From: an uncultured Gammaproteobacteria bacterium
GTDB lineage: Bacteria > Patescibacteriota > Patescibacteriia > Patescibacteriales > GWC2-42-12
Reading direction: 5' to 3'
Length of the DNA stretch: 64,000 nucleotides
NCBI GenBank assembly: GCA_964560005.1
Contig: CAZLKB010000004.1
Coordinates: 12,112-76,111 of the forward strand
Below are positions 1 to 54,500 of this stretch, one piece after another. Both the position numbers and the translations under genes were made by a program. The notes under the pieces are model-generated. The model was given only the letters and a program-made list of their open reading frames with translations, did not search any database and was not told the DNA's origin. Numbering within the stretch: position 1 is the stretch's first letter; every line of letters starts with the position of its first letter.

Positions 1-496
1 GCGCCTTGCCGGTTAAGCCGGCTTTAATAACGGTCTTTGTATAATTACCCTGGGTTAATAATGTCCGATAGATTTCCGGGTTGACCGGCCTGGGGCCGAC
101 TAGGCTCATATCGCCTCTAAATATATTAAACAGCTGGGGCAGCTCGTCCAAATAAATTTTTTGCAATATTTTTCCCACCCGCGATAAGCTATGTCCATCG
201 CGCTCCAGCACTTTGGTGTGTATGAAAATTTTATTTTTCTTCAGGCGGGCGATAACATCGGGTTTAAAAATATTAAGTTTTATCAAATTAAAAGGCTGTC
301 CCATTGATATCCTAGTTTCTGTATAAAATAACGGGGCGAAAATTTTCCCGGTAATTACATGCTCAAGGAATATCAGTGATAACAAAATTAGTAAAAACGG
401 TGAAGTGATTACCAATAATAGAGCGGAAAAGATTATATCAAACAATCTTTTGAGCCTAGGCAGGGTAATTTTTTTAACATTATCCGGGTAATCCAT
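1..496 (-). CDS. Bacterial sugar transferase (polyprenyl-phosphate glycosyl-1-phosphate transferase family), N-terminal part; C-terminus runs off the window
   Basis: Own translation from the ATG at 494-496: MDYPDNVKKITLPRLKRLFDIIFSALLLVITSPFLLILL...LDELPQLFNIFRGDMSLVGPRP. The LDELPQL..GDMSLVGPRP block is the signature of this family. It is absent from the ORF track because no stop codon lies inside the window. Confidence 0.8.
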   Translation of the reverse strand, partial: MDYPDNVKKITLPRLKRLFDIIFSALLLVITSPFLLILLSLIFLEHVITGKIFAPLFYTETRISMGQPFNLIKLNIFKPDVIARLKKNKIFIHTKVLERDGHSLSRVGKILQKIYLDELPQLFNIFRGDMSLVGPRPVNPEIYRTLLTQGNYTKTVIKAGLTGKA

Positions 497-629
497 GGCT
501 ATATTCTATCACAAAAAAATTATCATCTCAATTCTTGAAATAATAAATTCCTCAATATAATAATCTCAAACCGCTCCGGGTTGAAGCCTTAAAATAAAAG
601 CCCACAGCGTCCCTCTCGGCTTATAATAC

Positions 630-660
630 AAAAATAAGGCTCATCAAAGCCTTATTTTTA
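630..660 (-). terminator. Hairpin terminator after the sigma-factor operon
   Basis: AAATAAGGC (632-640) pairs with GCCTTATTT (649-657), with A/T runs on both sides. It lies about 30 nt beyond the stop of 689..1096. Confidence 0.5.
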
Positions 661-688
661 TTAAACAAAAATTGTGAATAACTTTAAC

Positions 689-1096
689 CTACTTTACTGC
701 CTGCTCCGCGTGATCGCAAATACCGTTTTTATCAGCGTCAATGAAATTGGCGCTTTTTCCCGTACCGCCATTATTCATCCGGCAGCCGCCATTCTGCCCG
801 CTGGCGCTATTTTTCATGCCGCAGCCTCCGGCGCCGCCTTTGCCGCGCCCCTGTCCTAAGCCCAGTTCGGTGCGAATTTTTTGCGCCTCTATATAATTAC
901 CCTCGGCCATCAATTGGTGCATCTTAGTAAACCGGTCAAAGTTCTGCTCGGTTACCGCGCTGGCGGCGCGGCCGCCGTTGTTGCCGATTACCGAACGCCA
1001 AGCTTCATAATTATTACCGGCCGCGTAAGCCACTGAAGCGGCCAACAAAGCCATAACACCGACGCCCAATCCGGCTAAAAGATACTTTTTTTTCAT
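689..1096 (-). CDS. Small secreted protein with a Gly/Asn/Cys-rich C-terminal half, function unknown
   Basis: 135-aa ORF with a signal-peptide-like N-terminus (MKKKYLLAGLGVGVMALLAASVAYA). The tail reads GGAGGCGM..NGGCRM..DKNGICDH. It is the last gene downstream of the ECF sigma. Confidence 0.6.
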   Translation of the reverse strand: MKKKYLLAGLGVGVMALLAASVAYAAGNNYEAWRSVIGNNGGRAASAVTEQNFDRFTKMHQLMAEGNYIEAQKIRTELGLGQGRGKGGAGGCGMKNSASGQNGGCRMNNGGTGKSANFIDADKNGICDHAEQAVK

Positions 1097-1166
1097 ATTT
1101 ATTTATTAATTATTAAATGAAAGCTGGTGCTTTCACTTATAATACGCGGATCCCGGGTTTTTTCTT

Positions 1167-1898
1167 TCACTGTTTTATCATTCCGCAGAAGCCGGCGCCT
1201 TGAGCCCTGCCGCAACCGCCTGACCCCTGCCAGGGGCGCACTTCCTCGACGGTAAAATTATCCCCGGCGGCCAGGCCGATTAATTTAATTTTAAGATCAA
1301 TTTCCGGCCTTAAATTATGCCTCCAAACAGCTTGAGCCGTATCAATAATCCAAATTTTTCCATCAAGGTCGCGCAAGCTATAGCTATTATCACTCCGAAT
1401 GTTAATTATTTTTCCGGCTAATAATCCGTCGTCCGGCTTCTGCCAAACTTCTTTCATGTACGCTTCCCTGTTTTGATACAACGGCACCGAACTAAAAAAT
1501 TTATCCGCCCGCCGGCTTATGCCGAAATAATTAAACAACCAACCGGCCGTGACTGCCAAAAACAATAAAACCAAACCAATCTTTATAAATGAATAACGAT
1601 AACCCCGCCCGATATTGCGAAAATCGAGCGAAGCTAAAAATCCACCCAGAATAATCAATCCGATTAAAATCAGCGGCATTCGCCCGAAAAATAATCCAAA
1701 ACCAAACCGGCCGCCATGAATCCATGGATTATCAGTCCAAAAATACCATAAGAGTCCAAGTGACATGATAATCAAAAAAATGAATAACATTAAACCCGCC
1801 CACTGCCCGCCGTCACGCAGCCTAAATCGCCAACCGGGCAAGGGCTTAAGGTGTTCATTTTTTATTTTACTCAATATTTTGTCGGAAATAGCGCTCAT
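1167..1898 (-). CDS. Polytopic membrane protein directly downstream of the ECF sigma (candidate anti-sigma/sensor, unproven)
   Basis: 243-aa ORF separated by a 4-nt gap from the sigma gene. About 4 hydrophobic helices occupy residues 30-125. A soluble C-terminal domain ends GSGGCGRAQGAGFCGMIKQ. Confidence 0.55.
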   Translation of the reverse strand: MSAISDKILSKIKNEHLKPLPGWRFRLRDGGQWAGLMLFIFLIIMSLGLLWYFWTDNPWIHGGRFGFGLFFGRMPLILIGLIILGGFLASLDFRNIGRGYRYSFIKIGLVLLFLAVTAGWLFNYFGISRRADKFFSSVPLYQNREAYMKEVWQKPDDGLLAGKIINIRSDNSYSLRDLDGKIWIIDTAQAVWRHNLRPEIDLKIKLIGLAAGDNFTVEEVRPWQGSGGCGRAQGAGFCGMIKQ

Positions 1899-1902
1899 AT
1901 TA

Positions 1903-2475
1903 TTAATTTAATAATTCCTCTTTCACCAGCTTGGCGAATTTCTTCTTAGCCCGGTTAACCAGGGTGGCGATCGTGCCCATTGGTTTTTTTAGAATATCAG
2001 ACATCTCGCTATAGTCTTTTTCTTCAAAAAACTTTAAAATAAGAATTTCCCGGTATTTTGGATCAATTTGCTCAAGAATGATTTTAGTTTTATTTTTTAG
2101 AATCTCCCGGTCAAACTCAGCCCCGGGGTAACTCTCGCGCACCAGCTCCTGCCACGGTTCAAAATCTTCCAGCTTTACCGTTGGCTTAACATTCGCTTTG
2201 CGGAAGGCGCTAATCGTTTGGTTGTGCGCGATACGATAAATCCAGCTGGAAAATTTAAACTTTTTGTTAAAATCATTCAATCGCAGATAGATGTTCAAAA
2301 AAACTTCCTGCAAAATATCCTCTGAATCCGTTGTGCCGCCGCCAAGCCTAACAACATAACGCCGCAAAGCCTCGGTATAGCGATTAACCAAACAGGCATA
2401 ATAATCCGGGTTAATTAACGCTTTTTCGACCAAGATATCATCCGTATATTTTTGACACTCTGATTCTAGAATCAT
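1903..2475 (-). CDS. ECF-type RNA polymerase sigma-70 family factor
   Basis: 190 aa. The region-2-like block is DILQEVFLNIYLRLNDFNKKFKFSSWIYRIAHNQTISAFRK. The region-4 HTH block is YREILILKFFEEKDYSEMSDILKKPMGTIATLVNRAKKKF. Confidence 0.85.
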   Translation of the reverse strand: MILESECQKYTDDILVEKALINPDYYACLVNRYTEALRRYVVRLGGGTTDSEDILQEVFLNIYLRLNDFNKKFKFSSWIYRIAHNQTISAFRKANVKPTVKLEDFEPWQELVRESYPGAEFDREILKNKTKIILEQIDPKYREILILKFFEEKDYSEMSDILKKPMGTIATLVNRAKKKFAKLVKEELLN

Positions 2476-2530
2476 AGTTAAAGTATATCATTATTAATAC
2501 GCTTTACAGAAGTTTTTCTTTCATGGCTGA

Positions 2531-2564
2531 AAACGACCGGCCTCCTTCTAGGGGTCGGTCGTTT
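2531..2564 (-). terminator. Hairpin terminator after the Memo-like gene
   Basis: ACGACCG (2533-2539) pairs with CGGTCGT (2556-2562), followed on the minus strand by TTTTC. The same GACCG..GGTCGGTCG stem words recur at 18106-18133. Confidence 0.5.
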
Positions 2565-2629
2565 ATAACTTTATTTATCCGGCTCCGCCGGCTAAAACAT
2601 GCTAAAACCGATTTAAACGAGTTTAACAA

Positions 2630-3541
2630 TTATTCACTGATAAAAGCAATCCCGAAATAGCTGGTAGTGGCCGCCGGTTTAGAGATGGCGTAATCAAAAG
2701 AGTTGTTATGCCGGATAAAAGAAGCTTTAAGGCCAGCTTGCTCGGCCAAGAGCATTGCCATAGCCAGGCCGGCCGGCGAATCCACATAGTCATTATTTAA
2801 ACCGTAAATTTTATCTATTAAAAAATTTTCTATTAAACTCTTGGTTTCTTCGTCTTTTAAATCCGCTTCCCCCTTGGTTAGGTAGTGGGAAAAGTCCAGC
2901 GAAAAAATAACCAAGCTGTTTTTCCCCAAGCGGCTTTTAAGCCAGCCGCTTAGTTTTTCAGCTTCAACTTTCCCGGCATAAGAAGACAAAACTATAGGCA
3001 GGACTCGCGCCTGGGGCAAATAATGCTTAATAAACGGCATGATGGCGCCGACCGAATGTTCATTCGCCAAAGCCGATGGGTTAGGCTCAAGCCGGTTATC
3101 GGTTAAAAATGATTTCACCAGTTTATCGTCGGCGAGCAAATCGCCTTCCGGCGTTTGCCAATTAACCGGCGCGCTAGCCAGCGGTTCGCGGCCGACATTA
3201 CTGTGGTTTGGCCCGATCACAACCACCGTATCAATCGGCCGGCCGCTGGCCGTTTTTAAGAGTTCGGCGATAATATCGGCGCCGACTAAGTGATGCGGCA
3301 CGATAATCGCGTAGACATCAGGTCTGGGCGCTATTTCACCGGCCTTTTTTACGGCCGGCAAAAATTGTTCCCGGCTATAAAAACTATCTTGCGTCTCCAC
3401 TATGGGCAAACCTGAAATATTTTTTCGGTCAGCCGGAGGCGGTGATAATTTTAACGACTTGATAAACCAAAAACAAAGTAGAAAAACCAAGCAGCAGCTT
3501 ATGCCGGAAATAATAATTATTATATTAGCTCGCTTATTCAT
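2630..3541 (-). CDS. Membrane-anchored Memo-like / AmmeMemoRadiSam-system-protein-B-like protein
   Basis: 303 aa with an N-terminal TM helix. The motifs IIVPHHLVG, VIGPNHSN and SLDFSHYL resemble the His-rich Memo/LigB-type fold. Its start overlaps the A2M stop by 1 nt (TAATG). Confidence 0.5.
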   Translation of the reverse strand: MNKRANIIIIISGISCCLVFLLCFWFIKSLKLSPPPADRKNISGLPIVETQDSFYSREQFLPAVKKAGEIAPRPDVYAIIVPHHLVGADIIAELLKTASGRPIDTVVVIGPNHSNVGREPLASAPVNWQTPEGDLLADDKLVKSFLTDNRLEPNPSALANEHSVGAIMPFIKHYLPQARVLPIVLSSYAGKVEAEKLSGWLKSRLGKNSLVIFSLDFSHYLTKGEADLKDEETKSLIENFLIDKIYGLNNDYVDSPAGLAMAMLLAEQAGLKASFIRHNNSFDYAISKPAATTSYFGIAFISE

Positions 3542-6500
3542 TATTCGGTAATGGTTAGGCTTTGGGAATTAGAGTAATTGATAAAATCGGGGTTGATAAA
3601 CGATTGGATAATGGCGGGTTCGGCTAAATAGGCTCCGCGATTTTTAACCCGCGCGTAATACTTAATATAATTCCCGGCGCAATAACTGTTGCGCCAATCC
3701 CGATTAATAAAATATTTCACCATTTGCCCGTCGGTGTTATAGGGGTACCAATAATTGCAGTCATAGCGAGAACCGCGATAATATATTTTCGTAACCGGCG
3801 CCAAGCCGCTCGGCAATATATCGGTAATCTGGTAATCGCCGGACAGAGCTGATTTCTTAAAAACCGGATAGAGCCTGACTTCCACCAAATCGTTTTCCTT
3901 AAAGCGCAGAGTTGACACTCCGTTAACATAATATTCGCGGGTGATGTTTATATCGCTGTCACGTTTAACTTTATTTAAGTCCAACTGTTCAATATAGCGC
4001 ACGGAAATTCCCACTTCGCCGGTAATGGACTTAAAATTAAGGCTGGCGGCTTGCTCCGGCGCCAGTTGGAAAAAATATAAATTACTGCCGGTGACATTGG
4101 CTTCCTTGGTTTCGCCGGACAATTCGTAAGTCACCTTGGCCGGGCTGGGTTTTAAATTAGGCAGAACCTGCTTTATATAATTTAATTTTTCCAAATTAAA
4201 CAGATTTTCGCTATTTTTATTTTCGCCGTATAAAACCTGATTCTCGTCTAAATATTTAAACAAGCCCTGAGCTTCTTTAATATCCAGCGAAGCGGCCAAG
4301 ACGGCGGCTACGGCCGTAGCTTGAAAGACTTCATCGTAATTATTGCTGACGCGGATGATTATTTGCGGTAATTTTTCCTCGCCGTATTGCTTTAAAACTT
4401 CGTAAAAAATTGTCTGACTTAACTCTTTAGCTCCTAAATCAACCAGCGCTTGAGCTAGATACAGACGCTCCTTAGGGTTTAAGTCGGTCCGCTTGAGCCA
4501 AGAATTAATTCGGGTCAGAACCGGCTCGCCCAGTTCGGCCAAACCGAACAAGGCATAACTTATTTCTTCGCGGTTAGCCTTATCGTCTTCCAGTTTATTA
4601 AAGAAGTATTGGGCTAAAGAAATTTTGTCAAACGGCTCCGCGCCCAAGGCTGATACTCTGGCGGAAAATTCCAAATCTTCGCCGCTATACGGCAGTAAAG
4701 CCAGGCCGCCGGTGGAAAGCTGATAATCAAAAGGGTTAAAAGCCGGTTCAATAATATCTTCTTGGTAATATTTTTTTAAGGTCTCCCGGCTTAATTTACG
4801 AACATATTTTTGATCAAGGCGGTCGCCCCAGGACCAGCTTAAACTCAACAGCGGGTCATATAGTTCATTCCGTCCCAAATCGCTTAACACCACGGCTATG
4901 GGAAAATTATTAATCGCTTTTACCTTAGTTTCAATAGTCAACCGGCTGCTGGTAGAAGTCTGCCCCGCCAGCCGGGAACTAATCGCCTTTAGCGGCAGTT
5001 TAATGGAGTCGTTGCCTTTGGCTGATTTTAATTCATAAACGATTTTGTGCTCGCCTAAAGACAGCGCCGGTAAATTATAATAAACCGGCTTAAAGGCCGA
5101 GGCGGAAAGAACCGGTGATTTATCCAAACCCAGAGTCGGAGCTGACAACGAGAAATCAACTTTGTCTACGGCCGCCAAAGCGGTGCCATAGGCGCGCAGG
5201 CGCGCTGAAGGCTTATCCGCGGTTAAATATTCATCACCGATAGTAACTTCGGCGAAAACCGGCAAAGACACCGGAATTTTTGCCACGCTTACCCCGGCCC
5301 ATAAATCTTTAGTCAGGCCCTGCGCGGTCACGCGCCAAGAAGTGATGTTATCAGGTAATTTAAATTCAACGGTTGCCCGGCCGCCGCTATCGGCGCGGAC
5401 TGATTGAAAGACGGCGGCATCGGTAAAATACTCTCTGGCTCCGCCGCCCTTTTCCGCGTTATGAACCCAAATGCCATCGGCAATATAAGTATGCTCCGGA
5501 TCAATGCCAAGATTGTAGACTTTGACCAATTCATGCTTTGTTTCTATCTCGCGCACCAAGACTTTTTCTTTGGCCGGAGACCAAAGCCAGTCGCCCACTT
5601 TCAGGCGGCCGGCGTCAACAAAATGATTATTGGCGAAAACCTGGTGTTCCGGAGTAATCTTGATTTTTTTATTGATGATCAGGTATTCACCGACCAAGTG
5701 CTCAACCACTTCTTCTACCCGGCCAGAAGTTAATTGCCGGCTGACCGGGTCGTTAAAGGTTAGAACCTGGTCGCCTACTACCATTTTTTCTATCGGCTTA
5801 TTGGTACCGTCGACCAATAAGATATTGGTCCCGGCGAGGAAACAACCGCCTTTTTCCGCGCCGCTGGAATTATCCACCAGGCTGGCGTGAGTTGAAAAAG
5901 CGATTAAAGTGCCCATACCAACTCCGGTATAGATTGATTCTAAGGGGGCGGCCGTATCTTCGGCTACCGCGTAATAGGCTTCATCCACTAAATTTATGTT
6001 TATTTCCGCCGGCAACGGCTTATTATTCCTGTCGGTTACCGCTATATTTAATTTGACATTCTCGCCCGGCAAATAACTTTTTTTATCGGTTTGTATATTG
6101 ACTTTTAGTTCCCTGTCCGCTGCCTTAAAATTAGCTGATTCGCCCCAGTAGCTCGCGCCAGTGGAGTGGTACGACCGGCCGTCAAAATAAACTCCAACCA
6201 AGTTGACATTCGGCACATCGCGGGATTCAAAAGCGAAGCTGTATTCGTTTTTACCGGCTACCTGATATTCTTGCAAGCCATTTTGTAGCTGCAGATAGAG
6301 AAAGCGGTTATTGCCGTTTTGCACCGGCTCATCATTTTTCTTGAAAATCGCCTTGACTTGATCGTTAATTGAGTAGGTTTTATTTTGCTGAGTTACGGGA
6401 TCGGCTAAGTTCAAATGATAATATTGGTAATTAAAGCCGTCGTAGCGATTAAGAGAAACGCCGTCATAGTAATATAAATAACTGATTCTTTTGTCAAATC

Positions 6501-9036
6501 GTGCCTGGCTGTCAATAAAGCGATACTTAAGTTGGTAGGAAATTTCCGGTTCAAGCGGCTGGTTAAAAATATATTTGCCGTCTTGGTCCGTTGTACCGCT
6601 AAAGCTCCTGACTTTTTCCTCTCGCCTGTCGTAGCTGTAAGTCTTATAACTGGTTTTGTTGATAAAGTCGTAGGCCGTGCCGGTTTCTTTCTTGGTATAT
6701 GAAATCTTTATTAAATCGCCTTCAATTCTAATCCCGGCCGCGGGCAAGTCGCCTAAGCTCCGGCTCCCCGACTGGTCGGCTTCCAGTTTAGCCAAATCAA
6801 TTAACTTGGCGGTCATCTCCAGCTGGCCTTGGCCTTTGGCCGGATAAATGGTCTTGCTTTCCAGATAGGCTTTCGGGCCGTAAAAATTAATATATGTTTC
6901 AGCGCTGATTTCCGCCAATTCGGAATTTTCCGGAGCGATTGATAGCCTGCTTGATTTCGGCCAACAACCGTAATCATCCGGGCAATCAATATAATTTTCT
7001 GTATAGGTTAAATCAGCCTCCCCGTTCTCGTCGGTGGTAAATATTTTTACTGTTTTTTCCGGAGTTTCAAATTTAAGCGATAAGGCCGGTACCGGAGTGC
7101 CTTCAAAAAAACTGGCTTTAACTTTTAAATTAACCGTATCGCCGGCGAAAGCGGCGTGGCGATCCGGCACCAGGCTTAATTGAAAAGCCGGCTTGGTATA
7201 AGGCATGATGGTGATATAGCTTCGCCTAACCACGGTTTCGCCGATTTTTAATTCCAGGGTGTAATAATCCGGCCGCAAATTTTTTATCGCCATCTCGCCT
7301 TTAAAGCTATTCAAATCGCCGATGTTTAACTCCTGGGTCATAATGGCTATGGGTTGGTAATAATAATCAACATAGCCTTCTTTAAAAAGCGTTAAAGTGG
7401 CTTTTCCATTTAAAGATTCGGAGCCGCGGTTTTTAACCAAGCCCCAATATTTTATGGTGTCGGTCGCTTGATAGCGCGGCCGATCGGTATAAAGATAGAG
7501 CCAGTAATCATCGGCCGCGATCGGACGGTTCCACCACCAATTATGAGATATTTGCGAGGCCGGTAAAATCAAGATATTATTATCTTTGGTTAATTTAAAA
7601 TATTGTCGCTTAGCGGCTTTTTCATCGGTAGAGCTATTTAATATCTCAGCCGGCGTATTAAATACCGCCACGCCCTGCGCGTCGGTTAAAACCGACAATG
7701 GATTATCAAGCAATTCCAGTCTAACCCCGCTAACCGGACTCTTGGTCAGGCTATTATTTAGCCAAAAAATCGTCTGGGTTTTTGTCACATTGTAATAAGC
7801 TGATAAATCGCTTACTTGCAGCCAGACCTGCACTTTACTGCCGTTGTTTTTTAATTCGGCCAAATAAAATCCCGGGGGCATTTTTTCCGGAAATTCTATA
7901 TATTTTATCTGGTTGCTGACTTTCACCGGCACGGTAAAGGCGCTGGCCTTTTTCAATTTGGCCGTATCCAGCAAGAAATCGTCCTTACTATAAGACCACC
8001 AGGGCAGGTTATCGCGTTCACGAATTGACTTTAAATATTCCTGCCAATCATTAAAACGAAAAGTTTCAACTTCCAGCTTATCGGGCGCCGCGTATGAAGA
8101 TACTTGTATGATCGGCGGGTATTGGGAGTCGCTTTCAATTAAGCGGTTATAAACTCCATACCAATCATTGGATCTAGAGTCGCTAGCCAGTTGAGTTTCA
8201 AAAGTAAAAATATAATCGGAGGCCAGGGTTTCCGCCGATTCGGCCAGCGGCAAACCGCGCTTAATCGTAACTTGATATAGAGTTCTGAAATTTAAGTTTG
8301 TTTCCGGAATAAAGACTAAAGTACGGCCATGCCGTTCAAACTCGCCCTTAACCGATGGATTAATGGAAAAATATTTTTCGTAATCGTAATAATTATCGTG
8401 GCTAAAAGTTATTTCAACGCCGGAATTAACCGGAACATTCGTGCCGGCGTCGCGAGGAATGCTATGAAGCACTTTAAAACTATCTTTAACCTGATAGACC
8501 CAGGAATAATCCCGTTCTTGGGTTTGATTATTTTCGTCAACAAAGGCCGTGGCCAAAGCAATCCGCACCAGCGTATTAGCCGGCAGAGCCCGGCGCGGCG
8601 CTATCTGCCATTCGGTATCGGAAATTTTTTTAAAATCATAAGGAAAATCAGGCTGAATCCGCAAATTATCTTTAATTAAATTCACATCCAGCGGTTCTTT
8701 GCTCTTTATAACATAAACCGTATCAGCCTTAACGCCCAAGCTGTCAATATTTAGCGGTTTTAAAGTAAAATTATCGCTGGCATTAGCGACGCTGATAATC
8801 AATTTTGAAAAGCCGCTAAACAAATCTTGGCTTTCCGGAGTCTGGCCGCCGGAAGGACCGGTTGTTCGCGTAGAAAAATAAAAAAATGCTGTTGCTGACG
8901 CGACTAATAAAATTAACAGCGAAGCCGCGCCTACTCCGGGCCAAATTCGTTTATTTTTCTTATCCGGCTGGAGCGGCGAGGAAGGCTCGGCCGGGGGCAT
9001 ATTTTCCCTTACCGGCGGATTATGTTCGTTTTCCAT
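3541..9036 (-). CDS. Membrane-anchored alpha-2-macroglobulin-like protein with no CxEQ thioester motif, interrupted by a Hint/intein-like domain
   Basis: The ORF runs 3541..9102. The probable start is M23 (ATG 9034-9036, MENEHNPP), because the upstream codons overlap the neighbouring gene. TM helix: GVGAASLLILLVASATAFFYF. The A2M-family block REYFTDAAVFQSV..GRATVEFKLPDNITSWRVTAQG follows the insert. I found no C-x-E-Q anywhere in the translation. Confidence 0.7.
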   Translation of the reverse strand: MENEHNPPVRENMPPAEPSSPLQPDKKNKRIWPGVGAASLLILLVASATAFFYFSTRTTGPSGGQTPESQDLFSGFSKLIISVANASDNFTLKPLNIDSLGVKADTVYVIKSKEPLDVNLIKDNLRIQPDFPYDFKKISDTEWQIAPRRALPANTLVRIALATAFVDENNQTQERDYSWVYQVKDSFKVLHSIPRDAGTNVPVNSGVEITFSHDNYYDYEKYFSINPSVKGEFERHGRTLVFIPETNLNFRTLYQVTIKRGLPLAESAETLASDYIFTFETQLASDSRSNDWYGVYNRLIESDSQYPPIIQVSSYAAPDKLEVETFRFNDWQEYLKSIRERDNLPWWSYSKDDFLLDTAKLKKASAFTVPVKVSNQIKYIEFPEKMPPGFYLAELKNNGSKVQVWLQVSDLSAYYNVTKTQTIFWLNNSLTKSPVSGVRLELLDNPLSVLTDAQGVAVFNTPAEILNSSTDEKAAKRQYFKLTKDNNILILPASQISHNWWWNRPIAADDYWLYLYTDRPRYQATDTIKYWGLVKNRGSESLNGKATLTLFKEGYVDYYYQPIAIMTQELNIGDLNSFKGEMAIKNLRPDYYTLELKIGETVVRRSYITIMPYTKPAFQLSLVPDRHAAFAGDTVNLKVKASFFEGTPVPALSLKFETPEKTVKIFTTDENGEADLTYTENYIDCPDDYGCWPKSSRLSIAPENSELAEISAETYINFYGPKAYLESKTIYPAKGQGQLEMTAKLIDLAKLEADQSGSRSLGDLPAAGIRIEGDLIKISYTKKETGTAYDFINKTSYKTYSYDRREEKVRSFSGTTDQDGKYIFNQPLEPEISYQLKYRFIDSQARFDKRISYLYYYDGVSLNRYDGFNYQYYHLNLADPVTQQNKTYSINDQVKAIFKKNDEPVQNGNNRFLYLQLQNGLQEYQVAGKNEYSFAFESRDVPNVNLVGVYFDGRSYHSTGASYWGESANFKAADRELKVNIQTDKKSYLPGENVKLNIAVTDRNNKPLPAEININLVDEAYYAVAEDTAAPLESIYTGVGMGTLIAFSTHASLVDNSSGAEKGGCFLAGTNILLVDGTNKPIEKMVVGDQVLTFNDPVSRQLTSGRVEEVVEHLVGEYLIINKKIKITPEHQVFANNHFVDAGRLKVGDWLWSPAKEKVLVREIETKHELVKVYNLGIDPEHTYIADGIWVHNAEKGGGAREYFTDAAVFQSVRADSGGRATVEFKLPDNITSWRVTAQGLTKDLWAGVSVAKIPVSLPVFAEVTIGDEYLTADKPSARLRAYGTALAAVDKVDFSLSAPTLGLDKSPVLSASAFKPVYYNLPALSLGEHKIVYELKSAKGNDSIKLPLKAISSRLAGQTSTSSRLTIETKVKAINNFPIAVVLSDLGRNELYDPLLSLSWSWGDRLDQKYVRKLSRETLKKYYQEDIIEPAFNPFDYQLSTGGLALLPYSGEDLEFSARVSALGAEPFDKISLAQYFFNKLEDDKANREEISYALFGLAELGEPVLTRINSWLKRTDLNPKERLYLAQALVDLGAKELSQTIFYEVLKQYGEEKLPQIIIRVSNNYDEVFQATAVAAVLAASLDIKEAQGLFKYLDENQVLYGENKNSENLFNLEKLNYIKQVLPNLKPSPAKVTYELSGETKEANVTGSNLYFFQLAPEQAASLNFKSITGEVGISVRYIEQLDLNKVKRDSDINITREYYVNGVSTLRFKENDLVEVRLYPVFKKSALSGDYQITDILPSGLAPVTKIYYRGSRYDCNYWYPYNTDGQMVKYFINRDWRNSYCAGNYIKYYARVKNRGAYLAEPAIIQSFINPDFINYSNSQSLTITE
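5458..5844 (-). other. 129-aa Hint (mini-intein / bacterial intein-like) domain inside the A2M-like ORF
   Basis: Block A is CFLAGTNILLVDG (Cys codon 5842-5844). Block B is KITPEHQVF (TxxH). Blocks F/G are VYNLGIDPEHTYIADGIWVHN (Asn codon 5458-5460). The next residue is Ala. There is no endonuclease domain. Confidence 0.8.
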
Positions 9037-9047
9037 AAAATTATTAA

Positions 9048-9263
9048 TTAAAAACTGATCCAAAAATAAAAGGCGCCGATGAGGAATATAACTCCTCCCC
9101 AAAATATCTGCCCGCCCTTAAACATTTGAGCTTTTTTATTAACACGACCAGGAAGCACGATTTTTTCAATTCCTTTAAACAATATTGCCCAGCCTAAAAT
9201 AGTTGCGGCGACCGGCCAGTCGGCGACCCAAACATTGTGTGCAACAACGGTAGCTAAGCCCAA
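9048..9263 (-). CDS. Small hydrophobic membrane protein, function unknown; start uncertain (TTG, or an upstream ATG via a frameshift)
   Basis: 71-aa ORF, GLATVVAHNVWVADWPVAATILGWAILFKG...IFLIGAFYFWISF. An ATG at 9292-9294 would join this frame if the A6/T6 run at 9265-9270 were one base shorter. Confidence 0.4.
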   Translation of the reverse strand: MGLATVVAHNVWVADWPVAATILGWAILFKGIEKIVLPGRVNKKAQMFKGGQIFWGGVIFLIGAFYFWISF

Positions 9264-42780: not shown

Positions 42781-45700
42781 TTACTGAATATTAATCGGCG
42801 TAGCGCTAATTGTATTGGAATTGGCGCTTTCTCGGCTATCAGCATCTATAGATCTTACTATGAAATTATAAAGTGTGCTATTAGTTAAACCGGTGACAAC
42901 TTGCGGATTAGCGGCCGTACCGGCTGTAGGAGAGGCAACAAACTTGGTAAATACGGTTCCGCCCTGATTATAATATACTCTATAACTGACCGCGCCCGAC
43001 GCCGCATCCCATGATAATCTCACTGATCCATTGCCAATACCCCTTAAAGCTAAATTAGCCGGAGGCGCGAAAGGTTTGGCTGAAATTTTATCGGAATTAA
43101 CGCTCTCCTTGCCATCGGCGTTAACTGATCTAACTATTAAATTATAAGTTACGCCATTGGTTAGGCCGGTAATAACCTGCGGATTAGCGGCCGTGCCGGC
43201 TGTGGAGCTGGCAATAAATTTAGTAAATACGGTTCCGCCCTGATTGTAATATACTCTATAGCTGACCGCACCCGGCGCCGCGTCCCATGATAGTCTTACC
43301 GATCTATCGCCAATACCCCTTAAAGCTAAATTAGCCGGAGGCGCGAAAGGTCTGGCAGAAATTATATTGGAATTAGCGCTCTCTATATTATCAGCAATAG
43401 ATCTAACTATAAATTTATAAGTTAATCCATTAGTTACCGGAATAATTTGCGGATTAGTAGCCGTTCCCGCCGTAGAAGTAGCGACAATAGTAGTAGTAAA
43501 GGTATCTCCGCCATTAGTATTATAATATACTTTATAGCTATTTGCGCCCGACGCCGCCTCCCATCTGACTTTTACTTCGCCATTACCTACGCTGACTAAA
43601 GATAAATTAACTGCCGCCGACGCGAACGGAGTGGCCGCAACCGTAGTGGTGGCGCTCTTATTGCCGGACGAATCATAAGCCACTACGCCGAAGCAATATT
43701 TTATTCCATTGGTAAGATTACTGGTGGTCGCTGTTTTATTATTAGTTGCGAATGAAGCGCCGAAGTTGACATTAGCGCCGCATGTATCATTGGCTTTATA
43801 AAACACTCTATAATTTACCGCTGTGTCATCATTTTCAGTCCAGGTTAAGGCGACTTGCCTATCCTTAGGAGTGGCTGACAATGAAGCCGGCTGTACCGGC
43901 GGCGTAGTATCGGCCGGCACCACGGTTACTTCGTTAGAATAAGCGCTTTCGTCGCCATTAGAGCTTAGCGAAGTAACCGCGAAATAATATTTTACCCCGT
44001 TGGTTAAATTGTTTATGGTCGCGGAAGTACCGGTGCTTGGAACAGATTTTGTATAGGTTTTTGGCTTAGTGCCGTAGTATACTTTATAGCCGGTGGCGCC
44101 GGAGATAATATCCCAGGTTGCGCTTACTCCACCGCCCGAATCCAAAGCTGTAACCTCTAAATTACTTGCTGCACTGGGCAGGCTTTCCCTAAAAAAATAA
44201 AATTCTTTTAAAATATCAACCTGGCAGGTGCCGGAGTTACTGCCACAAGGTGTATTTATGGAATTAGCCTCTGAACAGCTGCTGTTTGAACAGCTACAAA
44301 TCGAATTATAATCGCATTTGCCGCTCTTATCACTGCAGATATCCCCCTTTATCTTATCCGTGCAATCGCCGGTTCCGTCATCGCAATTTAAAGAATTGCT
44401 TCTGCAGATTAAATTCATACCCCTGATGGTGGCTGTGTTGGAAATCGCGGGTAAGTCATCGGCCGTTCCCGGTCCGCCCGCGTCGCGGCAGTAAGACAAT
44501 TTCATGTTAGTCGGGGTGCAGGTACCTCCTCCAGCCGGACATCCTGAAGGTTCTTCCCACGGCTCCCAGGTGCCGTCAGACTGCATCTGCGGCCAAGGAT
44601 TATCGCAAACCATTAAATAAACATCGGCTTCTGCCGGAAAAGAGCCTCCTCCGGTTCCGACCACTGTAGCCGTGGCGGTAATTTCCGCTTCGCCCGTGGT
44701 TACTGTGGGCAGAGCTTTAACTAATTTTTTATTATCTGGTAAAGTTCCTGTGGTTGGAGCTAAAACTTTAAAAATATCTTCATTGCTGGAACTCCAACCC
44801 CAAGTCCAGTAGTATATATCGGTTAGCGGATATAAGACCGTGCCGTCGGCCGCGTAGGCGTTAGCCGCGAACAGTTTGTCGCTGTCCTTAATCTTATCAA
44901 AAGCCGCCTTATCGTTCGGATCATTATCTGTAATATTGTCCTTATTGGTTTGAAAAAGATACGAAGCCGGTTCAAGCTCGGCGTAGACAATCTTGCAAAT
45001 GCCGTGGTCGTCGCCGCTGTCCGGCCTGGTGGTGAAAAACCAAATTTTACCATTATAAGTTTTACCGTTAAATTGAGAATTCGGTGAAAAAGGTACCGGA
45101 GTCATGCCCACGCCATAAGCGCTTAAGACTCCTTCTCTTATAGCATCGGCGGTATTACCGTCCCCTTTAATAATAACATAATATTGCCTGGACGGCGCTA
45201 AAACTTTTTCCGGCCTGAATTCCAGCACTGATTTGCCGACCGCGTTGTCGTAGCCGCTAACCGTGCCTTTAATGGCGCAAAAATTTCCTGTCAGCGCCAT
45301 TGCGTCTGATGTGAATAATTTTTTGACTAGGGGTATCTTGGCTAGGACTGATTTTACTCTGGCTAAAAAGGTGGGTTTATAAGCCGCGGTTAAATATTCG
45401 GTATCGGCCGGGCAAGGATCTAGGTTGTAATAGCCAGCCACGATAATATTGCCGTTAAAGCTCTCTGTCTGCATGGACTGGCTAAAAGTGGCTTGAATTA
45501 CCGCGTTGCGGCAGACGTTTTCGCTGAAAGGCGCTGGTTGTTGACCGGCCACTGCCGGCCTGGCGTGGCAGCAAGTGTCCTGCCCGCAGCCGTTCGTATC
45601 AGGACTGTCGCAACTATTATCATCCGTACAGCCGCAGCAAAGTCCGCGCTCATTAGTATCACTGGTACAGGGCGATTGATTCGGCTTGCAGGTTAATTTA

Positions 45701-48700
45701 AGCTTTGCGCATTGGTCCGGGTTAGCATCTGGATCGCAACAACAAGTTCCGCAGGGAGGAGTGGAAGGAATATTACCGGTATCAGTTAGGCAAGAAAAAC
45801 CAACACATCTATTAATATCACAGCTTGGCGAAGCGTTGTAAGCGGAGCAATTTTCGCCGAAATCCGGCTTCTGGCATTGATTATCGCAATTATCTGTCTT
45901 ATAGTCGCCATCTTTTACCTTCGTAGTGTCGCAACTATTAGCATTAACACCGGTGCCGCAATTATAATAAGCGCAATAATTATAAGGCGGTTCAGAGACA
46001 TAATCTTCGCCGCCGCGACAAGCATTACTAATTTTGGCGTCAACACAGCAAGAGCCGACGCCGGCGGTAGAACAAGCCAAGGCTGTAGTTAACTGCGCGC
46101 AATCCTTACAAACTCCTTGCCCGCCGGCGGCCGAAGTATCGCAATATTTTCCGCTGGTGCCGGAACAATTGCAAGCGTCGTTGCTAGCGGATATATCTAC
46201 CAGGTTATTGGTGCCTCTGACCGTACAGCCGGTGCAAAGTCCAAAAGTGTCGTCCGTACTGCTAGTGCCGCTGCCGCAAGTGCCTTGGCACTTTAACGGC
46301 GCGCAACAATCCTCCGCGTCATGGCCGGCGCGGCAACAACAGTCGCAACTGGCGCTGTTGCTTGGCGCGACGGCGGCGCATTTGTTATTACCGGTGCAGA
46401 TTGAGCCGGCCGGGCAGACATTAGTATCAACCGCGCAAACACCGGCTCCATCCTGATTCAAACAATTAAAACCAATATCGCATGAAAAGCAAGTCAAAGT
46501 ATTTTCTGTACATTTACCGCCTCCGATATTAGTCCAGCCGGTCGGGCAGGAATAATTAGTGCTGATTTGCCATTTACTATTAACACAAATTGCTTCAACA
46601 TCATGGCTATTTACATCTTGAACCGTTTTTGGTAAATCGCAAGTTGGATCAATCTTTTTAACGCATCTATTGATTTTTTCTTCATATTCGCATAAATTTA
46701 ACTGGCAATATCCGCTCGTACCGCAAACATCGCCATTTTGTTTGCCCAGACAGCTGCCTGCCCCGCCAACGCATTTTGAACACGACGCCAAACTATTACA
46801 GCTAAAGTCGCAATCGCCGACGATGCGCGAACCGCTGTAAAGCTCGTTGACCTCGTCCGAGCTTAAAGCCCGGTTATATACGCGCACATCGTCAATAAGG
46901 CCGTTGAAAAATCTACTGCCATTGCCATTGGCGAACCAAGCTCGTCCGATCTGTACCGTTGAACCAGAATCATCACCCGGACCGCTGAGTCTTTCCCATT
47001 CCTTAGAACCATTCACATATAATATTATGTTGCTTGAGGTGTAGACGGTTACGACATGGTACCACTGGCCTGCACTAACCGGTTTTCCGGTGTCTGCTTC
47101 CGCGTTTCCGACATGCATGTTCCATTTTCCTAGCCTTACTTCGGTTCCTTTATCCCAAACCGCGTTATCGGTACAAAGAAAACAGCCCGGCTCATATATA
47201 GATTCTGGCTTCACCCAAGCGGCGTAAGATATCGGTTCATCATCAATTTTAAGCGGTGTATCAACATAAGTATTTGATCCGTTAAACTTAAGCGCCTGGC
47301 CGATTCTGCCGGGCACAATATTAGAGCCTGTTAAATTATTGAGTGTACCGTCCTGATCCTGGCCGGAACTGTCAGAGGCTTTCTTTCCGGCTATGTCTAT
47401 ATCCGCGCTGTCAAAAGTCCACCAGCCGATCAATCCGTTGCTTAATGTACTGCCGCTACTAACCGAGCATTTGCCCGGCGAATTGGGACAAAAATAAGTA
47501 TCCGCGCATAAATTGCCGTAACCGGAGCAGGATTCAGCCGGAGCCGGTATGCATAGACAAGAATTATTACAGGTAAAACCAGGATCGCAGGCACCCGCTT
47601 GACATCCGGGTTCATTCACATTTGTATCGCAGGTGGAAACTTTACAAATACAGTCCTGGTTACAGTAATAACCAGGATCGCAGGCACCCGCTTGACATCC
47701 GGGTTCATTCACATTTGTATCGCAGGTGGAAACTTTACAAATACAGTCCTGGTTACAGTAATAACCAGGATCGCAGGCACCCGCTTGACATCCGGGTTCA
47801 TTCACATTTGTATCGCAACGCACTGGTTCTTGGCAGAGGCAAGAAGTAGTATTACAAACATACGGAGAAGTACATTTAGATTGAGTTATATCGCAATATC
47901 CTTTTTTAGCGCCATTATAACAAGGGTCGCCCGGACCAGGTTCAGTGTCAAAATCCCACTCATAAACCGAAGAATTATATTCGGGAAAGCAGGCTTCTTG
48001 GACGTCTACTCCGTCTCTGCATCTGCCTACGAATGGAGTGCCTTTAGGGCAGCAAAAATTAGTCGCGCCGCATTCGCTATCAATTTTACAGGTACCAACC
48101 GTGAAATTCAGGCCATTGCCGACCACTTCAGGGCTGTTTTTAACCACTCTTACCGGACCGGTAACCGCTTGTTGATGAACCGTAGTAACTGATTTGTCCG
48201 GATCCTGCCCCCAACTCTTGATGGCCGCTCCGGATTGATCATAATTTAAATAAAATCTTACCTTGCTATTAGTATCTTGAACTCCAAAATACTCGCCCCA
48301 TAAACTTACATCATCACCAACCTGCCCCATAATTGGCTTAATTTTACATAAGCTGGGCGCAAGCGGTTTATCTTGCTCAAAACTAAATTGCGATGGAGTT
48401 AACTTACTGGTGTCAATTAACCAGTTTTGGCCGCCGCTTTTAGCGATCTCCATAGCTATTAAACCTGATACTGTATTTTTTATTTCCGCCGGCACCTTGA
48501 CTATAACTTGCTTATCGCTCCAGATTGAATCGGCGCAGACTTCCGGAAAATTAAAATCCGCTTCCACTCCTTCTTTGACTGTACCCGATCCTATTTCTGC
48601 GCCGAAATATACCTTGCTATTTCCCCTAGTTGCTCCGAAGCCCTTGCCTCGAATCGTTACATATTGGCCTGTAGCCCCGTCAACCGGATCAAAAGAAGTA

Positions 48701-51550: not shown

Positions 51551-54500
51551 TTACTGGCACTTTTCACTATCTGTCGGAGTACCATTACAGCAAGACGGTG
51601 CTGCCGGATCAATAAGCGTCGCAGCACAGTCCAGGCTCCCGCTCGGCAGATAACAATTCTGATAAATGTCCTTTAAGCCCGAGCCTGCCTGGGCCCGATA
51701 AGACCTGGCTTTGCCGAAACTGCTATGGTTAAGAAAAACATCTGATTCTTCATACTCCCCGTCTCTAGGCTCTTTATCAAAACCCTTATTGGTTACCCAA
51801 TAAGCCAAAGGTTCGGTGGCGTAAGCCTTTAAATTTATCAGCTGGTGAATAACTTTTTCTTTATTATTGGTTACAGTCACATTGCCGGTGGTTAATCTAG
51901 AAGACATCATCAGTTTATCAAAATGCATAGAGATCGGCTTAACATAGTCGGCGGTCGCGAAATCATACGCTTTAGTAATGGGGTCGGTTAAGGTTATTTT
52001 CGGGCTGGTGAGATCTAGTAAATTATTTATAAAGAACTTCCAGAGGAAATTGTCGCCTTTTTCCTGGGCATTTGCTAAAGATCCGGCGCTACAAGCTACA
52101 ACCCCGCAAATCGTTAATTTATCGGCCTGACTGCACTGCTTATTGCCGCATAAGCCGTAGAGATCGTTTTCATTATAATAACTAACCGACCCTTGAGCTA
52201 AATCGTCGCGGTTGCCGTCTAAAGAATTTATGGCCGCATCCATGATTCCGCCTTTCACGCTATCCATTAAATACATTAAATCAGCCTGGGGATAATTTTC
52301 ATTGCTTGGATTTACGCAAACTTTTGTCGTATGGCAAGTATTATAAGGCGACTTGCTGGCGCAGTCAGCATCTGTATCGCAAAGGGCCAGGCCGGCGGCT
52401 TTTAACTCCACGCTTAAATGGCTGTTTTCCGGCAGGCAATATATTTTTTCTCCGCACGAATTAAAACCGCATTCCCTGTCAGAAATAAAATTAACCGTGC
52501 TGTATTGATTGGAAATCTCAAATTTACCTTTAAGGTAATTCGCGGCCACACATTTTGTTCCTTCACATATTAATGACTTGCAGTCTGAATCTTGTGTACA
52601 ATTCGCGCCCGCGGGGGCAGTAGTAGGGTTAGTATTAACTATCCTCTCTTTACATTTTAGTTCTTCTTTATCACACATAAACGACCTGCAATCCGCGTCA
52701 GCCGTACAGCTCAAGTCGGCGGGGTTAGCCGTGGTCGGCTTAGCCGCCGGATCAGCGTTAACCACTCTGATAAAATCATGCACTTCATCCGCCGTGCCGG
52801 AAACCTGCATGGGCATAATGGCTTCGTTAAACTCAATCTGGATGGTGGCGTTCATGGGCTTATCGCGCCGGCCTTTAACCGTAACGGTTTCCGGTCGGTC
52901 GGCTCCATTCTGCTCCATAGAAATTTTTAATGCTTCGGAGTTGCTGGTGTTAAATACAATGTTATTTCCCGCGGAACCGGCTACTATAGCTTCTAATATC
53001 ACAAATTCATTTAAATTTTGTTTAGTGGGAAAAGGCGGAATTGGTTTAACTTCGGTATTATTTTTTAAAGTTTGATAGATATTATACGCAGTAGCAGACA
53101 TTGAATTAGGACCTGCTCCCAAGAGAATTTGTTGATTGCCTGGCGAACCCGAGACAAAAGTATAAACCTTATTGCCAACCGTTAAAGTATCGGCGTCTAT
53201 GGCTCTGGTTACAGTAATATCCCAGCCATTGCCGGCCGAGAAATCATCGCTTAGGCCGCTTAAAGTTAAAACTAAATTACACTCGCTAAAAGATATGGTT
53301 TTGTGGCCGGCGCTTTGTCCGAAAGTTCCCTGGCCCATGAGCATGCTGGCGGGAGCGGGAGAAAAAAGTTGAGCAACCAAAGGGGTTGTGCCCGCGGGTA
53401 TGATTACTTTCAAGATTCCGTCTTGCCGGCAACTTGGGTTAATAACTGCTCCGGCCGGGTCGCCGCCAACTGAAACTACAGATGTAACCTCCGCGATTTT
53501 CTTTACCTCCGGCAATGCGGCAACTATTATCTCCCATGCGGCAGGAGTGGCCGCGCCTACGATATAACTATCCGCGCTGACATCAGGCGCCGGGAAAACT
53601 CCTCCGACCTTAACCTGGGGCGGGGTTAAATCTATTTTAGTGCTGACTTCAAAAGGCCACTCATAGCCCTGGCTGAAAGAGCCGGCAAAAGCATTTTTAC
53701 CATCGGCTTTTTTAATCCCGGTCGTCAAATAGACGCCGTAGTCAATGGGTTCCGATGGCGAGCCTAGATAACTATCCGGCACAAAAATGAAAGTCTTTTT
53801 ATTCGGAGTGGAATATGCTTTTGCTTGTGCTAAGGTGCAAAGAGGATCTATAGTCGCACTTGTGCAAAGAGTATGTTGCGATAATTTAAATATCCTAATA
53901 TTCTTTAACGCGTCAGTGTTAATTTCCTCACCATTGCATTTATTTACATCTGTCGGGTTACTGCAAATAGTAGTTGGATTAATCGCTTCCCTGAAAGTCA
54001 CGATAATGCTGGTATTGCGCGGCACATCTTTCTGATTGCGCGCCGGATAATGGGATTCAATGATGCCGCCGCCCAGGGCGCCCACGCCGATATTGCCCGG
54101 CGGCACGCCCGGCTTTTTATTCGCTCCTCCCCCGCCCGTTAACAGGTTTAGAATAAAACTTACAATGGCGAAGGCCAGTATTATAATAATCAAGCCTATA
54201 ACCGCGTTTTTTAAAACGGTCTTGGCTTTATCAATTTTTTGCGGATCGCCGCCCGAAGTCATCCAGAGAAAACCGCCGTAGATGATTAAGATAACCGCGA
54301 TGATGCCTAAAAAGCCGATGAACCATCTTATCACCCTGGTTATGGTGGTGTATAAATTCGTGCCTGATCCGGCTAAACCCGCGTCGTCCGCGAATTGATC
54401 TCCGGTAGTGCCGTCGCCGCCGGCAGAAAAATAATTATTTACATTAGTAGCGGCTAAAGCCGGCGGGACTAAAGCGAAATCAACCAACAAAAAAATAGCG

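Follow-up and report, generated by a model that had tools for sequence, protein, structure and literature searches.

A bacterial intein-like Hint domain conserved at the bait region of alpha-2-macroglobulin-like proteins of CPR bacteria

A 64,000-nucleotide stretch of contig CAZLKB010000004.1 from an uncultured bacterium (assembly GCA_964560005.1; hereafter the window) encodes a protein of the alpha-2-macroglobulin (A2M) superfamily that carries, at the equivalent of the protease bait region, a Hint domain of the bacterial intein-like (BIL) type. Orthologues across the phyla of the candidate phyla radiation (CPR) hold the same domain at the same site with its catalytic residues unchanged. Tentatively, we propose that Hint excises itself from the bait, which would yield a two-chain, self-matured or self-triggered A2M. 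Some members of the family have kept the internal thioester of A2Ms, and others, the window protein among them, have lost it.

Results

The inserted domain is a type-A BIL

Direct reading of the translation confirms the classical blocks that the earlier note had described in a mini-Hint of 129 residues, namely Cys1, the block-B TPEH, the terminal His-Asn and Ala at +1 (Table 1), and all of its sequence statements hold. The best-scoring Pfam model is PT-HINT (PF07591; E 5.5e-14, 45.8-53 bits against a gathering cut-off of 27.7 bits), the other Pfam Hint and intein models matching more weakly, and the NCBIfam model TIGR01443 (intein_Cterm) also scores above its own cut-off. The best sequence match in the PDB is the BIL of Clostridium thermocellum (2LWY; E 3.8e-8 for a single-sequence query, 3.4e-19 for the profile of the family), and the second profile match is BIL2 of Tetrahymena BUBL1 (6Y75/6TMM; E 5e-18); both rank above RecA, DnaB and other inteins. 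In addition, an AlphaFold2 (AF2) model of Hint alone has a pLDDT of 96.8, and Foldseek matches it to BIL2 (6TMM, TM 0.90) and 2LWY (TM 0.89, root-mean-square deviation 1.9 Å, 33% identity), followed by inteins (TM 0.76-0.84) and Hedgehog (~0.73). With its Cys1, T-x-x-H, His-Asn and non-nucleophilic +1 residue, the domain is a type-A BIL, as defined previously (PMC4031507), of the PT-HINT clade. The earlier note's assignment to a BIL-type Hint with a non-nucleophilic +1 residue is thereby supported. The window domain resembles 2LWY in its fold, Cys1, block-B T-x-x-H, C-terminal His-Asn and lack of a +1 nucleophile.

Two other identities were considered and rejected. Intein blocks A, B, F and G and the Hint fold are present in the domain; a canonical class 1 intein, however, has Cys, Ser or Thr at +1, where Ala stands here. 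Such inteins also occupy highly conserved functional sites of their hosts and often contain a homing endonuclease; the present site is a disordered Gly-rich linker, and Pfam finds no homing-endonuclease domain within the 129 residues. The second identity comes from the databases, in which orthologues are labelled either ‘polymorphic toxin-type HINT domain-containing protein’ or ‘Alpha-2-macroglobulin domain protein’. The window domain is like the PT-HINT of polymorphic toxins in exceeding the gathering score of PF07591 and in the NCBI names of its orthologues, but there is no immunity gene, and the next gene downstream is Memo-like. The NCBI toxin-type name is misleading as to the function of these Hint-bearing proteins, because an A2M half, and no toxin module, follows Hint.

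Hint is located at the bait-region equivalent of an A2M

The host protein is a member of the A2M superfamily, with the ring of macroglobulin (MG) domains, the bait-region domain, A2M/MG7, CUB-TED and the C-terminal MG domain. Pfam finds Big_5, MG2, A2M_BRD, PT-HINT, A2M and bMG10 in it. The family profile aligns with E. coli A2M (YfhM; ECAM) at an hhalign probability of 99.5%, and the bMG10-like region falls opposite the C-terminal region of ECAM. An AF2 model of aa 654-1853 (pLDDT 82.8) has as its top Foldseek matches in the PDB ECAM (5a42, E 8e-43) and Salmonella A2M (4u48), both at E 1e-41 to 1e-43, with C4, C5, TEP1, A2ML1 and CD109 ranking lower. On the 3′ side of Hint, Pfam, profile and Foldseek agree on the MG7-CUB-TED-like-MG10 half of an A2M.

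Four lines of evidence uphold the earlier note's placement of Hint at the bait region. First, the domain sits between Pfam A2M_BRD (aa 904-1045) and Pfam A2M (aa 1231-1287). Second, phmmer aligns aa 1222-1289 (AREYFTDAAVF...) with residues 731-799 of human A2M (VRKYFPETWIW...), the bait of which we take to be residues 690-728 in precursor numbering (UniProt P01023). Third, a Hint-sized gap opens in hhalign opposite ECAM ~948-957; in ECAM, Arg923-Leu942 form a disordered bait, and Arg956, Gly958 and Asn963 have been described within the cleaved bait region (PMC4498604). Fourth, the AF2 model drops to a pLDDT below 50 at aa 1065-1084 (model residues 412-431, 20 residues) and at aa 1217-1228 (12 residues after Hint), with the Hint domain itself confidently folded between these low-confidence linkers. 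The linker upstream of Hint differs among orthologues in both sequence and length.

The location agrees with that of type-A BILs in part. Like them, the domain is found in a secreted or surface protein and within a variable region, here a disordered linker. Classical BILs, however, occur sporadically, in hypervariable stretches of proteins that are themselves not conserved, and not at conserved sites of essential proteins; the present insertion is fixed and orthologous CPR-wide, at one site of an orthologous family that is also the functional trigger region of the host.

Hint has been retained across CPR phyla

A whole-protein search gave 65 close homologues, 53 of which carry Hint at the same alignment position, down to ~30% identity, and 12 of which lack it. 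An exhaustive search with the Hint profile returned 40,468 proteins (E ≤ 1e-3), and the 150 best-scoring representatives of clusters at 50% identity include 22 further A2M-like ones with Hint at the same site. We also scanned one genome per GTDB species with a query spanning the Hint-A2M junction, and the junction is present in 47 of the 80 species-representative loci returned. These 47 are labelled Moraniibacteriota/Moranbacteria, Falkow-, Parcu-, Uhr-, Sacchari-, Peri-/Peregrini-, Collier-, Nomura-, Doudna-, Davies-, Roizman- and Levyi-bacteria, WWE3 and Microgenomates, while the labels of the Hint-less loci are mainly Firmicutes/Clostridia and Chloroflexi. Some metagenome-assembled genomes with a Hint-A2M are labelled Gammaproteobacteria, Pseudomonadales, Nevskiaceae or archaeal, which we suspect to be mistakes of binning or naming. 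The window itself is placed in the CPR (Patescibacteria) on the strength of its named relatives.

Wherever present, Hint is 128-130 aa long, and C1, T64, H67, H128 and N129 are invariant in the family alignment. Loci L007, L036, L050 and L055 all carry it, with runs of N masking L007 (~5400-5450) and L036 (~5700-5800) at Hint or its C-terminal junction. No degenerate copy was found among those readable in full, L007 and L036 being partly masked. Mean identity is 50% in Hint vs. 39% in the rest of the protein, and the two are correlated pair by pair (r = 0.66). The sequences thus show vertical inheritance of Hint over a very long period, under purifying selection.

Neighbour-joining trees were built with the Hint columns excluded and carry no bootstrap support. 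In these, two Hint-less proteins (P0046 and P0051) fall within groups of Hint-bearing ones; when the tree is rooted on ECAM, the proteins having both thioester and Hint branch first and every Hint-less member is nested. Provisionally, the simplest order of events is a single ancient insertion, a later loss of the thioester in the branch of the window protein, and a few losses of Hint. Since Hint can be lost, as in P0046 and P0051, its retention in most lineages is noteworthy.

The junctions follow a motif of the BIL subfamily

The earlier note had seen AEKGG on both flanks of Hint, in DNA as well as protein, and had taken the pair for a duplication bracketing the insert. The repeat itself is confirmed: GCGGAAAAAGGCGGT (5845-5859) and GCGGAAAAGGGCGGC (5443-5457) each encode AEKGG, and are identical at 13 of 15 bases with both mismatches synonymous. 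A repeated 5-mer somewhere in a protein of such composition arises in 76% of shuffles, and the A2M-like protein has three; an identical 5-mer at both Hint junctions has a composition-based chance of ~1e-6. The placement is non-random, and it reflects conserved junction chemistry or ancestry and no fresh insertion.

Family-wide, the junctions read (A)E-x-G-G/Cys ... His-Asn/(D/E/Q/A/...)-K-G-G(-G). Gly occupies -1 in every Hint-bearing A2M member but one, and a Lys follows the Asn by 2-3 residues in all but two, in which it is at +6; the alignment column of this C-flank Lys (K565) is invariant. The +1 residue in relatives is E, D, Q, A, G or N, with the exceptions of Thr (P0042 and P0043) and Ser (P0157 and L013). 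The exact five-residue repeat with Ala at +1 is limited to a few lineages, namely the window protein, its closest relative P0002, and L019, L030 and L055. Hint-less homologues have a single linker, e.g. AEKGG-GGGGV-R or AECGG-EGESE-R, and no Lys occurs on the C-terminal side of the linker in any of them (12 of the 65 in the alignment).

The closest relatives of this Hint outside A2Ms belong to surface proteins that also contain PKD, Big, Laminin_G or similar domains, and in which 2-7 or more Hint units stand head to tail with ...VHN-KGG-CF... linkers. Of 254 such tandem units, 152 have Lys at +1, 71 have KGG as the first three residues after the unit, and 126 have Gly at -1. Five proteins (P0068, P0071, P0080, P0069 and P0074) consist mostly of tandem Hint units joined by KGG, KG or KGGG alone, and some poly-Hint proteins also have PKD, Big_9, Laminin_G or Tim44-like domains. 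Because the motif recurs in these unrelated arrays, the KGG on both sides of Hint is the periodic linker of this BIL subfamily, and the AEKGG repeat is neither a target-site duplication nor an insertion footprint specific to this gene.

For the same reasons, we give next to no credence to a recently inserted mobile intein with AEKGG as its target-site duplication. Such an origin would account for the identical five-residue flanks in the window. However, relatives down to ~20-30% host identity and across CPR phyla have Hint at the same site, Hint co-diverges with its host, no endonuclease domain is present, the two AEKGG copies share only the bases that their codons require, and the flank motif is one that the Hint subfamily also shows in hosts unrelated to A2Ms. 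The orthologous site, the co-divergence and the subfamily motif effectively refute this origin.

Hint occurs with and without the A2M thioester

In the window protein, Arg replaces the thioester Cys (Table 1); the same is true of 65 of the 65 homologues, with Cys in none. One of these, P0046, was considered as thioester-positive on account of a GCTEQ (aa 1431) and rejected, since the helix that holds this motif is an unrelated one and GDRVDQ stands at the aligned site. The alignment thus indicates that the window protein belongs to a branch of the Hint-A2M family that has lost the CXEQ thioester.

Other members have kept it. P0183 and P0196 have the same Hint and flanks (AEQGG/C...HN/DKG...); 224 residues farther downstream they have GYPYGCVEQTMS, and Pfam matches them to TED_complement. 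GC[VIM]EQ is likewise kept in nine Hint-bearing loci (L032, L033, L034, L037, L039, L041, L047, L048 and L057). In L049, a GSLEQ is perhaps at the thioester-equivalent site. Hint in the bait is therefore not linked to thioester loss, and since thioester-bearing relatives have Hint, any model of its function must also suit proteins with a live thioester. The thioester-bearing Hint A2Ms are natural test cases for thioester discharge upon Hint processing.

The thioester-less window protein resembles type II A2Ms (Pseudomonas aeruginosa MagD and E. coli YfaS) in having A2M architecture and a bait region with no CXEQ, and MagD still traps protease after bait cleavage (PMC5764988). It differs in that the type II genes lie in the six-gene mag/yfa operon whereas Memo-like, PGA_cap and ECF sigma factor genes surround the Hint-A2Ms (ECF, extracytoplasmic function), and in that its host belongs to the CPR and the protein has a putative N-terminal membrane anchor. 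Because Hint-bearing sister lineages keep GC[VIM]EQ, the loss in the branch of the window protein looks independent of the MagD/YfaS type. From type I A2Ms (ECAM and Salmonella A2M), the window protein differs in having neither CXEQ nor an adjacent pbpC.

Proposed self-excision at the bait and its alternatives

The reading that we favour, at a little under an even chance, is that Hint cleaves itself out at both junctions. After export and folding, Cys1087, aided by Thr1150 and His1153, would turn the Gly1086-Cys1087 bond into a thioester by an N-S acyl shift, and Asn1215, aided by His1214, would cyclise and thereby cut Asn1215-Ala1216. A canonical branched intermediate should be impossible because the side chain of the +1 Ala is non-nucleophilic, and the main outcome would be Hint excision via N- and C-terminal cleavage. 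This is the course of characterised type-A BILs, in which an N-terminal thioester forms, the C-terminus is cleaved by Asn cyclisation, and cleavage products dominate (PMC4031507; PMC7664689). The earlier note's premise that BILs cleave rather than splice therefore stands as to the dominant products; as an exclusive statement it does not, as type-A BILs can also splice, the freed alpha-amine attacking the thioester (PMC4031507), and BIL2 makes a Lys isopeptide (PMC8616854).

The predicted product is two chains with the break immediately upstream of the R-x-x-F segment, and the C-terminal cut would leave only AEKGGGA before R1223, which would be the closest possible mimic of bait cleavage. In A2Ms the trigger is a discontinuity of the chain in the bait, and neither elongation nor a change of sequence; the segment just past the bait threads the central channel and retracts once cut, and the bait of human A2M can be replaced wholesale (PMC9352918). 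As the break would fall just before this channel-threading segment, Hint would act as a built-in, protease-independent device for maturation or triggering at the position of the anaphylatoxin domain (ANA) of complement, and the short variable linker upstream of it might yet function as an ordinary bait. Structurally, a product of two chains is plausible, because bait-cleaved MagD, which has no thioester, stays assembled as two associated fragments (PMC5764988). We infer the autocatalytic chemistry from the invariant catalytic residues and published BIL chemistry, and the trigger role, which fits both the position of Hint and published mechanics, from the way A2Ms work.

ANA of C3, C4 and C5 is likewise a folded domain at the bait-equivalent site, upstream of an R-x-x-F-P-E-x-W strand; its position within C3 is assumed here from the C3 structure. 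Harwood et al. equate bait and ANA as a ‘designated susceptible region’ (PMC9352918), and removal of ANA triggers the conformational change (PMC9352918). The two domains are unrelated in fold, and ANA is removed by an external convertase, whereas Hint is predicted to remove itself.

Several points weigh against self-excision. The ratio of cleavage to ligation is not readable from sequence, and a trap that fires by itself looks wasteful. Constitutive self-triggering would discharge the intact GC[VIM]EQ of several relatives, which speaks for ligation or for a reaction that is conditional. Splicing by aminolysis of the thioester would be helped by Gly at -1, by a small or acidic residue at +1 and by flanks that are flexible and rich in Gly. 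Conservation of the catalytic residues is also expected of a harmless passenger that has to splice lest it inactivate its host. Finally, the trees are without support, and the order of events drawn from them, itself provisional, changes with the rooting.

Such a passenger is unlikely, in our view, although it carries appreciable weight. Hint would excise itself and rejoin its flanks by the type-A BIL route, in which the freed alpha-amine attacks the Gly thioester, and the resulting continuous bait (...AEKGG-AEKGGGAR...) would work like that of a Hint-less A2M, the domain persisting only since its precise loss is rare. Type-A BILs are capable of splicing in this manner (PMC4031507); -1 is Gly nearly everywhere, a small or unbranched residue stands at +1, and disordered, Gly-rich stretches flank the domain. 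The ligated linker would also match the Hint-less one in length and character (~20 residues, AE-x-GG...GG-x-R), and an intact bait makes sense of the intact thioester in some relatives. Yet cleavage products dominate in the characterised BILs, and imprecise deletions should be tolerable in a variable linker, so that a useless domain should decay; instead, lineages across the CPR retain Hint at a constant length and with higher conservation than the host protein, and it has no endonuclease for selfish maintenance.

A different fate of the N-terminal thioester is suggested by BIL2 of Tetrahymena thermophila BUBL1 (6TMM/6Y75), which forms an isopeptide between a Lys epsilon-amine and a C-terminus and conjugates its N-extein to several substrates (PMC8616854). 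By analogy, the Gly-Gly thioester at the N-junction might be resolved by a Lys epsilon-amine, either that of the C-flank Lys at +2/+3, which would leave an isopeptide-‘spliced’ chain, or that of a Lys in an attacking protease or a surface protein of the host cell, which would produce a covalent conjugate. Among solved structures, BIL2 ranks first in fold and second by profile against the window Hint, and both have a diglycine before Cys1 (RGG precedes residue 1 in the BIL2 construct, (K/x)GG in the Hint-A2M family). The C-flank Lys, which would correspond to the Lys acceptor of BIL2, is near-invariant where Hint is present and absent from the linker of every Hint-less homologue, and the related units elsewhere frequently have Lys at +1 (152 of 254). 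However, the conserved Lys could serve Asn cyclisation or the packing of the domain instead, BIL2 is eukaryotic, has ubiquitin-like flanking domains and is only ~24% identical to the window Hint, and no target-recognition domain is evident. The isopeptide, known for BIL2, is a candidate product here, and we regard Lys-directed transfer as rather improbable.

An extension of this chemistry, in which Hint would provide a second means of covalent capture that is independent of TED, is likewise doubtful in our judgement. The bait Gly-Gly thioester would be passed to a Lys epsilon-amine and so replace the lost CXEQ in thioester-less lineages, and the acceptor could be the +2/+3 Lys or a Lys of the protease engaging the bait or of a surface protein on the host cells of episymbionts.

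The domain might also be a catalytically silent plug at the ANA-equivalent position, activation coming only from an external protease that cuts the upstream linker. The ~10-20 variable, disordered residues that precede Hint are as expected of a bait, but without catalysis it is hard to see why Cys1, T-x-x-H and His-Asn should be strictly invariant in every copy examined, and we hold such a plug to be very improbable. Self-excision by cleavage thus remains the reading that we put first.

Gene structure and neighbourhood

The called start of the A2M-like open reading frame (ORF) is TTG 9102; an in-frame ATG at 9036 (residue 23, MENEHNPP...) is a plausible true start, and the Hint finding is unaffected by the choice. 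The N-terminal hydrophobic segment, read as a signal anchor, would place the rest of the protein outside the cytoplasm. Coordinates of this and the other features are collected in Table 1.

Table 1. Positions of the A2M-like gene, its parts and neighbouring genes in the window
Feature	Position	Strand	Details
A2M-like gene	3541..9102	minus	1853 aa; from ORF and translation
N-terminal hydrophobic segment	8875..8943	minus	aa 54-76 (23 residues), WPGVGAASLLILLVASATAFFYF, preceded by KKNKR; read from translation
A2M bait-region domain (Pfam A2M_BRD)	5968..6393	minus	aa 904-1045
Bait-like linker 5′ of Hint	5845..5919	minus	aa ~1062-1086; disordered, sequence-variable; ends in AEKGG (5845-5859)
BIL-type Hint domain	5458..5844	minus	aa 1087-1215, 129 aa; CFLAGT...ITPEHQ...IWVHN
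Hint Cys1 (Cys1087)	5842-5844	minus	codon TGT
Hint block-B TPEH	5644-5655	minus	aa 1150-1153
Hint terminal His-Asn (H1214-N1215)	5458-5463	minus	codons CAT AAC
+1 residue (Ala1216)	5455-5457	minus	codon GCG
C-flank AEKGG	5443..5457	minus	+1 Ala (5455-5457), Lys1218 (5449-5451)
Start of post-bait block	5242..5436	minus	invariant R1223-x-x-F-x-D motif, then Pfam A2M aa 1231-1287 including LPDNITSWR
Degenerate thioester site	4810..4827	minus	G-D-R-L-D-Q, aa 1426-1431; aligned by hhalign to ECAM G-C1187-L-E-Q
C-terminal bMG10-like domain	3586..3948	minus	aa 1719-1839; weak Pfam match
Memo-like gene (PF01875)	2630..3541	minus	start overlaps A2M stop codon; product has N-terminal hydrophobic anchor
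ECF-type sigma factor	1903-2475	minus	neighbour of A2M module
Polytopic membrane protein	1167-1898	minus	243 aa; after ECF sigma gene

The pairing of A2M with Memo is also seen at the loci of P0026, P0046, P0183 (L004) and L023. Memo is fused to PGA_cap (CapA-like) in L004 and L023, and a separate PGA_cap gene follows it in P0026. Hint-bearing and Hint-less members of the A2M family alike are accompanied by the Memo-like gene, and from this gene order A2M-Memo(-PGA_cap) appears to be a conserved module. An ECF sigma gene directly adjoins the A2M gene at the loci of P0026, P0055 (L002) and P0183 (L004), which suggests envelope-stress control of the module; in the window, the polytopic membrane protein after the sigma gene is possibly an anti-sigma factor. 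The P0183 locus, with its ECF sigma gene and Memo-PGA_cap gene, shares the neighbourhood of the window.

No pbpC (PBP1c) lies beside the window A2M, the neighbours being the Memo-like, ECF sigma and FTR1 genes. In L042, by comparison, a Hint-A2M of 2232 aa with the full bacterial MG set (1618-8316, plus strand) directly follows a PBP1c-like gene (Transpeptidase and BiPBP_C; 3-1628, plus strand), i.e. a Hint-A2M in the classical type I pairing with PBP1c. The L042 contig is 385 kb long and is labelled ‘Candidatus Bathyarchaeia archaeon’, which looks like another binning or naming error. Elsewhere in the window, two large neighbouring minus-strand ORFs (42781-50937, 2718 aa, and 51551-54565, 1004 aa) have a T4SS_pilin-like N-terminus followed by Laminin_G_3/fn3/TIG or Big_5 domains and resemble giant surface proteins, with no Hint detected in either.

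Discussion

A full-text literature search combining intein-like or HINT-domain with macroglobulin found no paper describing this architecture. The Hint/BIL and A2M parts are each known; their fixed combination at the trigger site, its CPR-wide spread and its coexistence with a thioester appear to be undescribed.

The members of the A2M superfamily, namely A2M, C3/C4/C5, TEPs and bacterial A2Ms, are thought to need an external protease at the bait or ANA to fire their conformational switch. If Hint indeed cleaves, the superfamily could have here its first member that fires or matures by itself; should Hint ligate or transfer its flank instead, it could represent natural BIL chemistry in the service of a defined host function. 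The family is relevant to specialists of A2M and complement and of inteins and BILs alike. Research on BILs, which so far are mostly known from scattered hypervariable proteins, gains a large set of orthologues with Hint at one fixed site and with a phenotype that can be read out, the A2M conformational change. A mini-Hint of 129 aa that has Gly at -1 and does not depend on Cys, Ser or Thr may also be useful in protein engineering. Finally, the Hint-A2M family is widespread in CPR bacteria, in which little is understood of the surface proteins that mediate episymbiosis.

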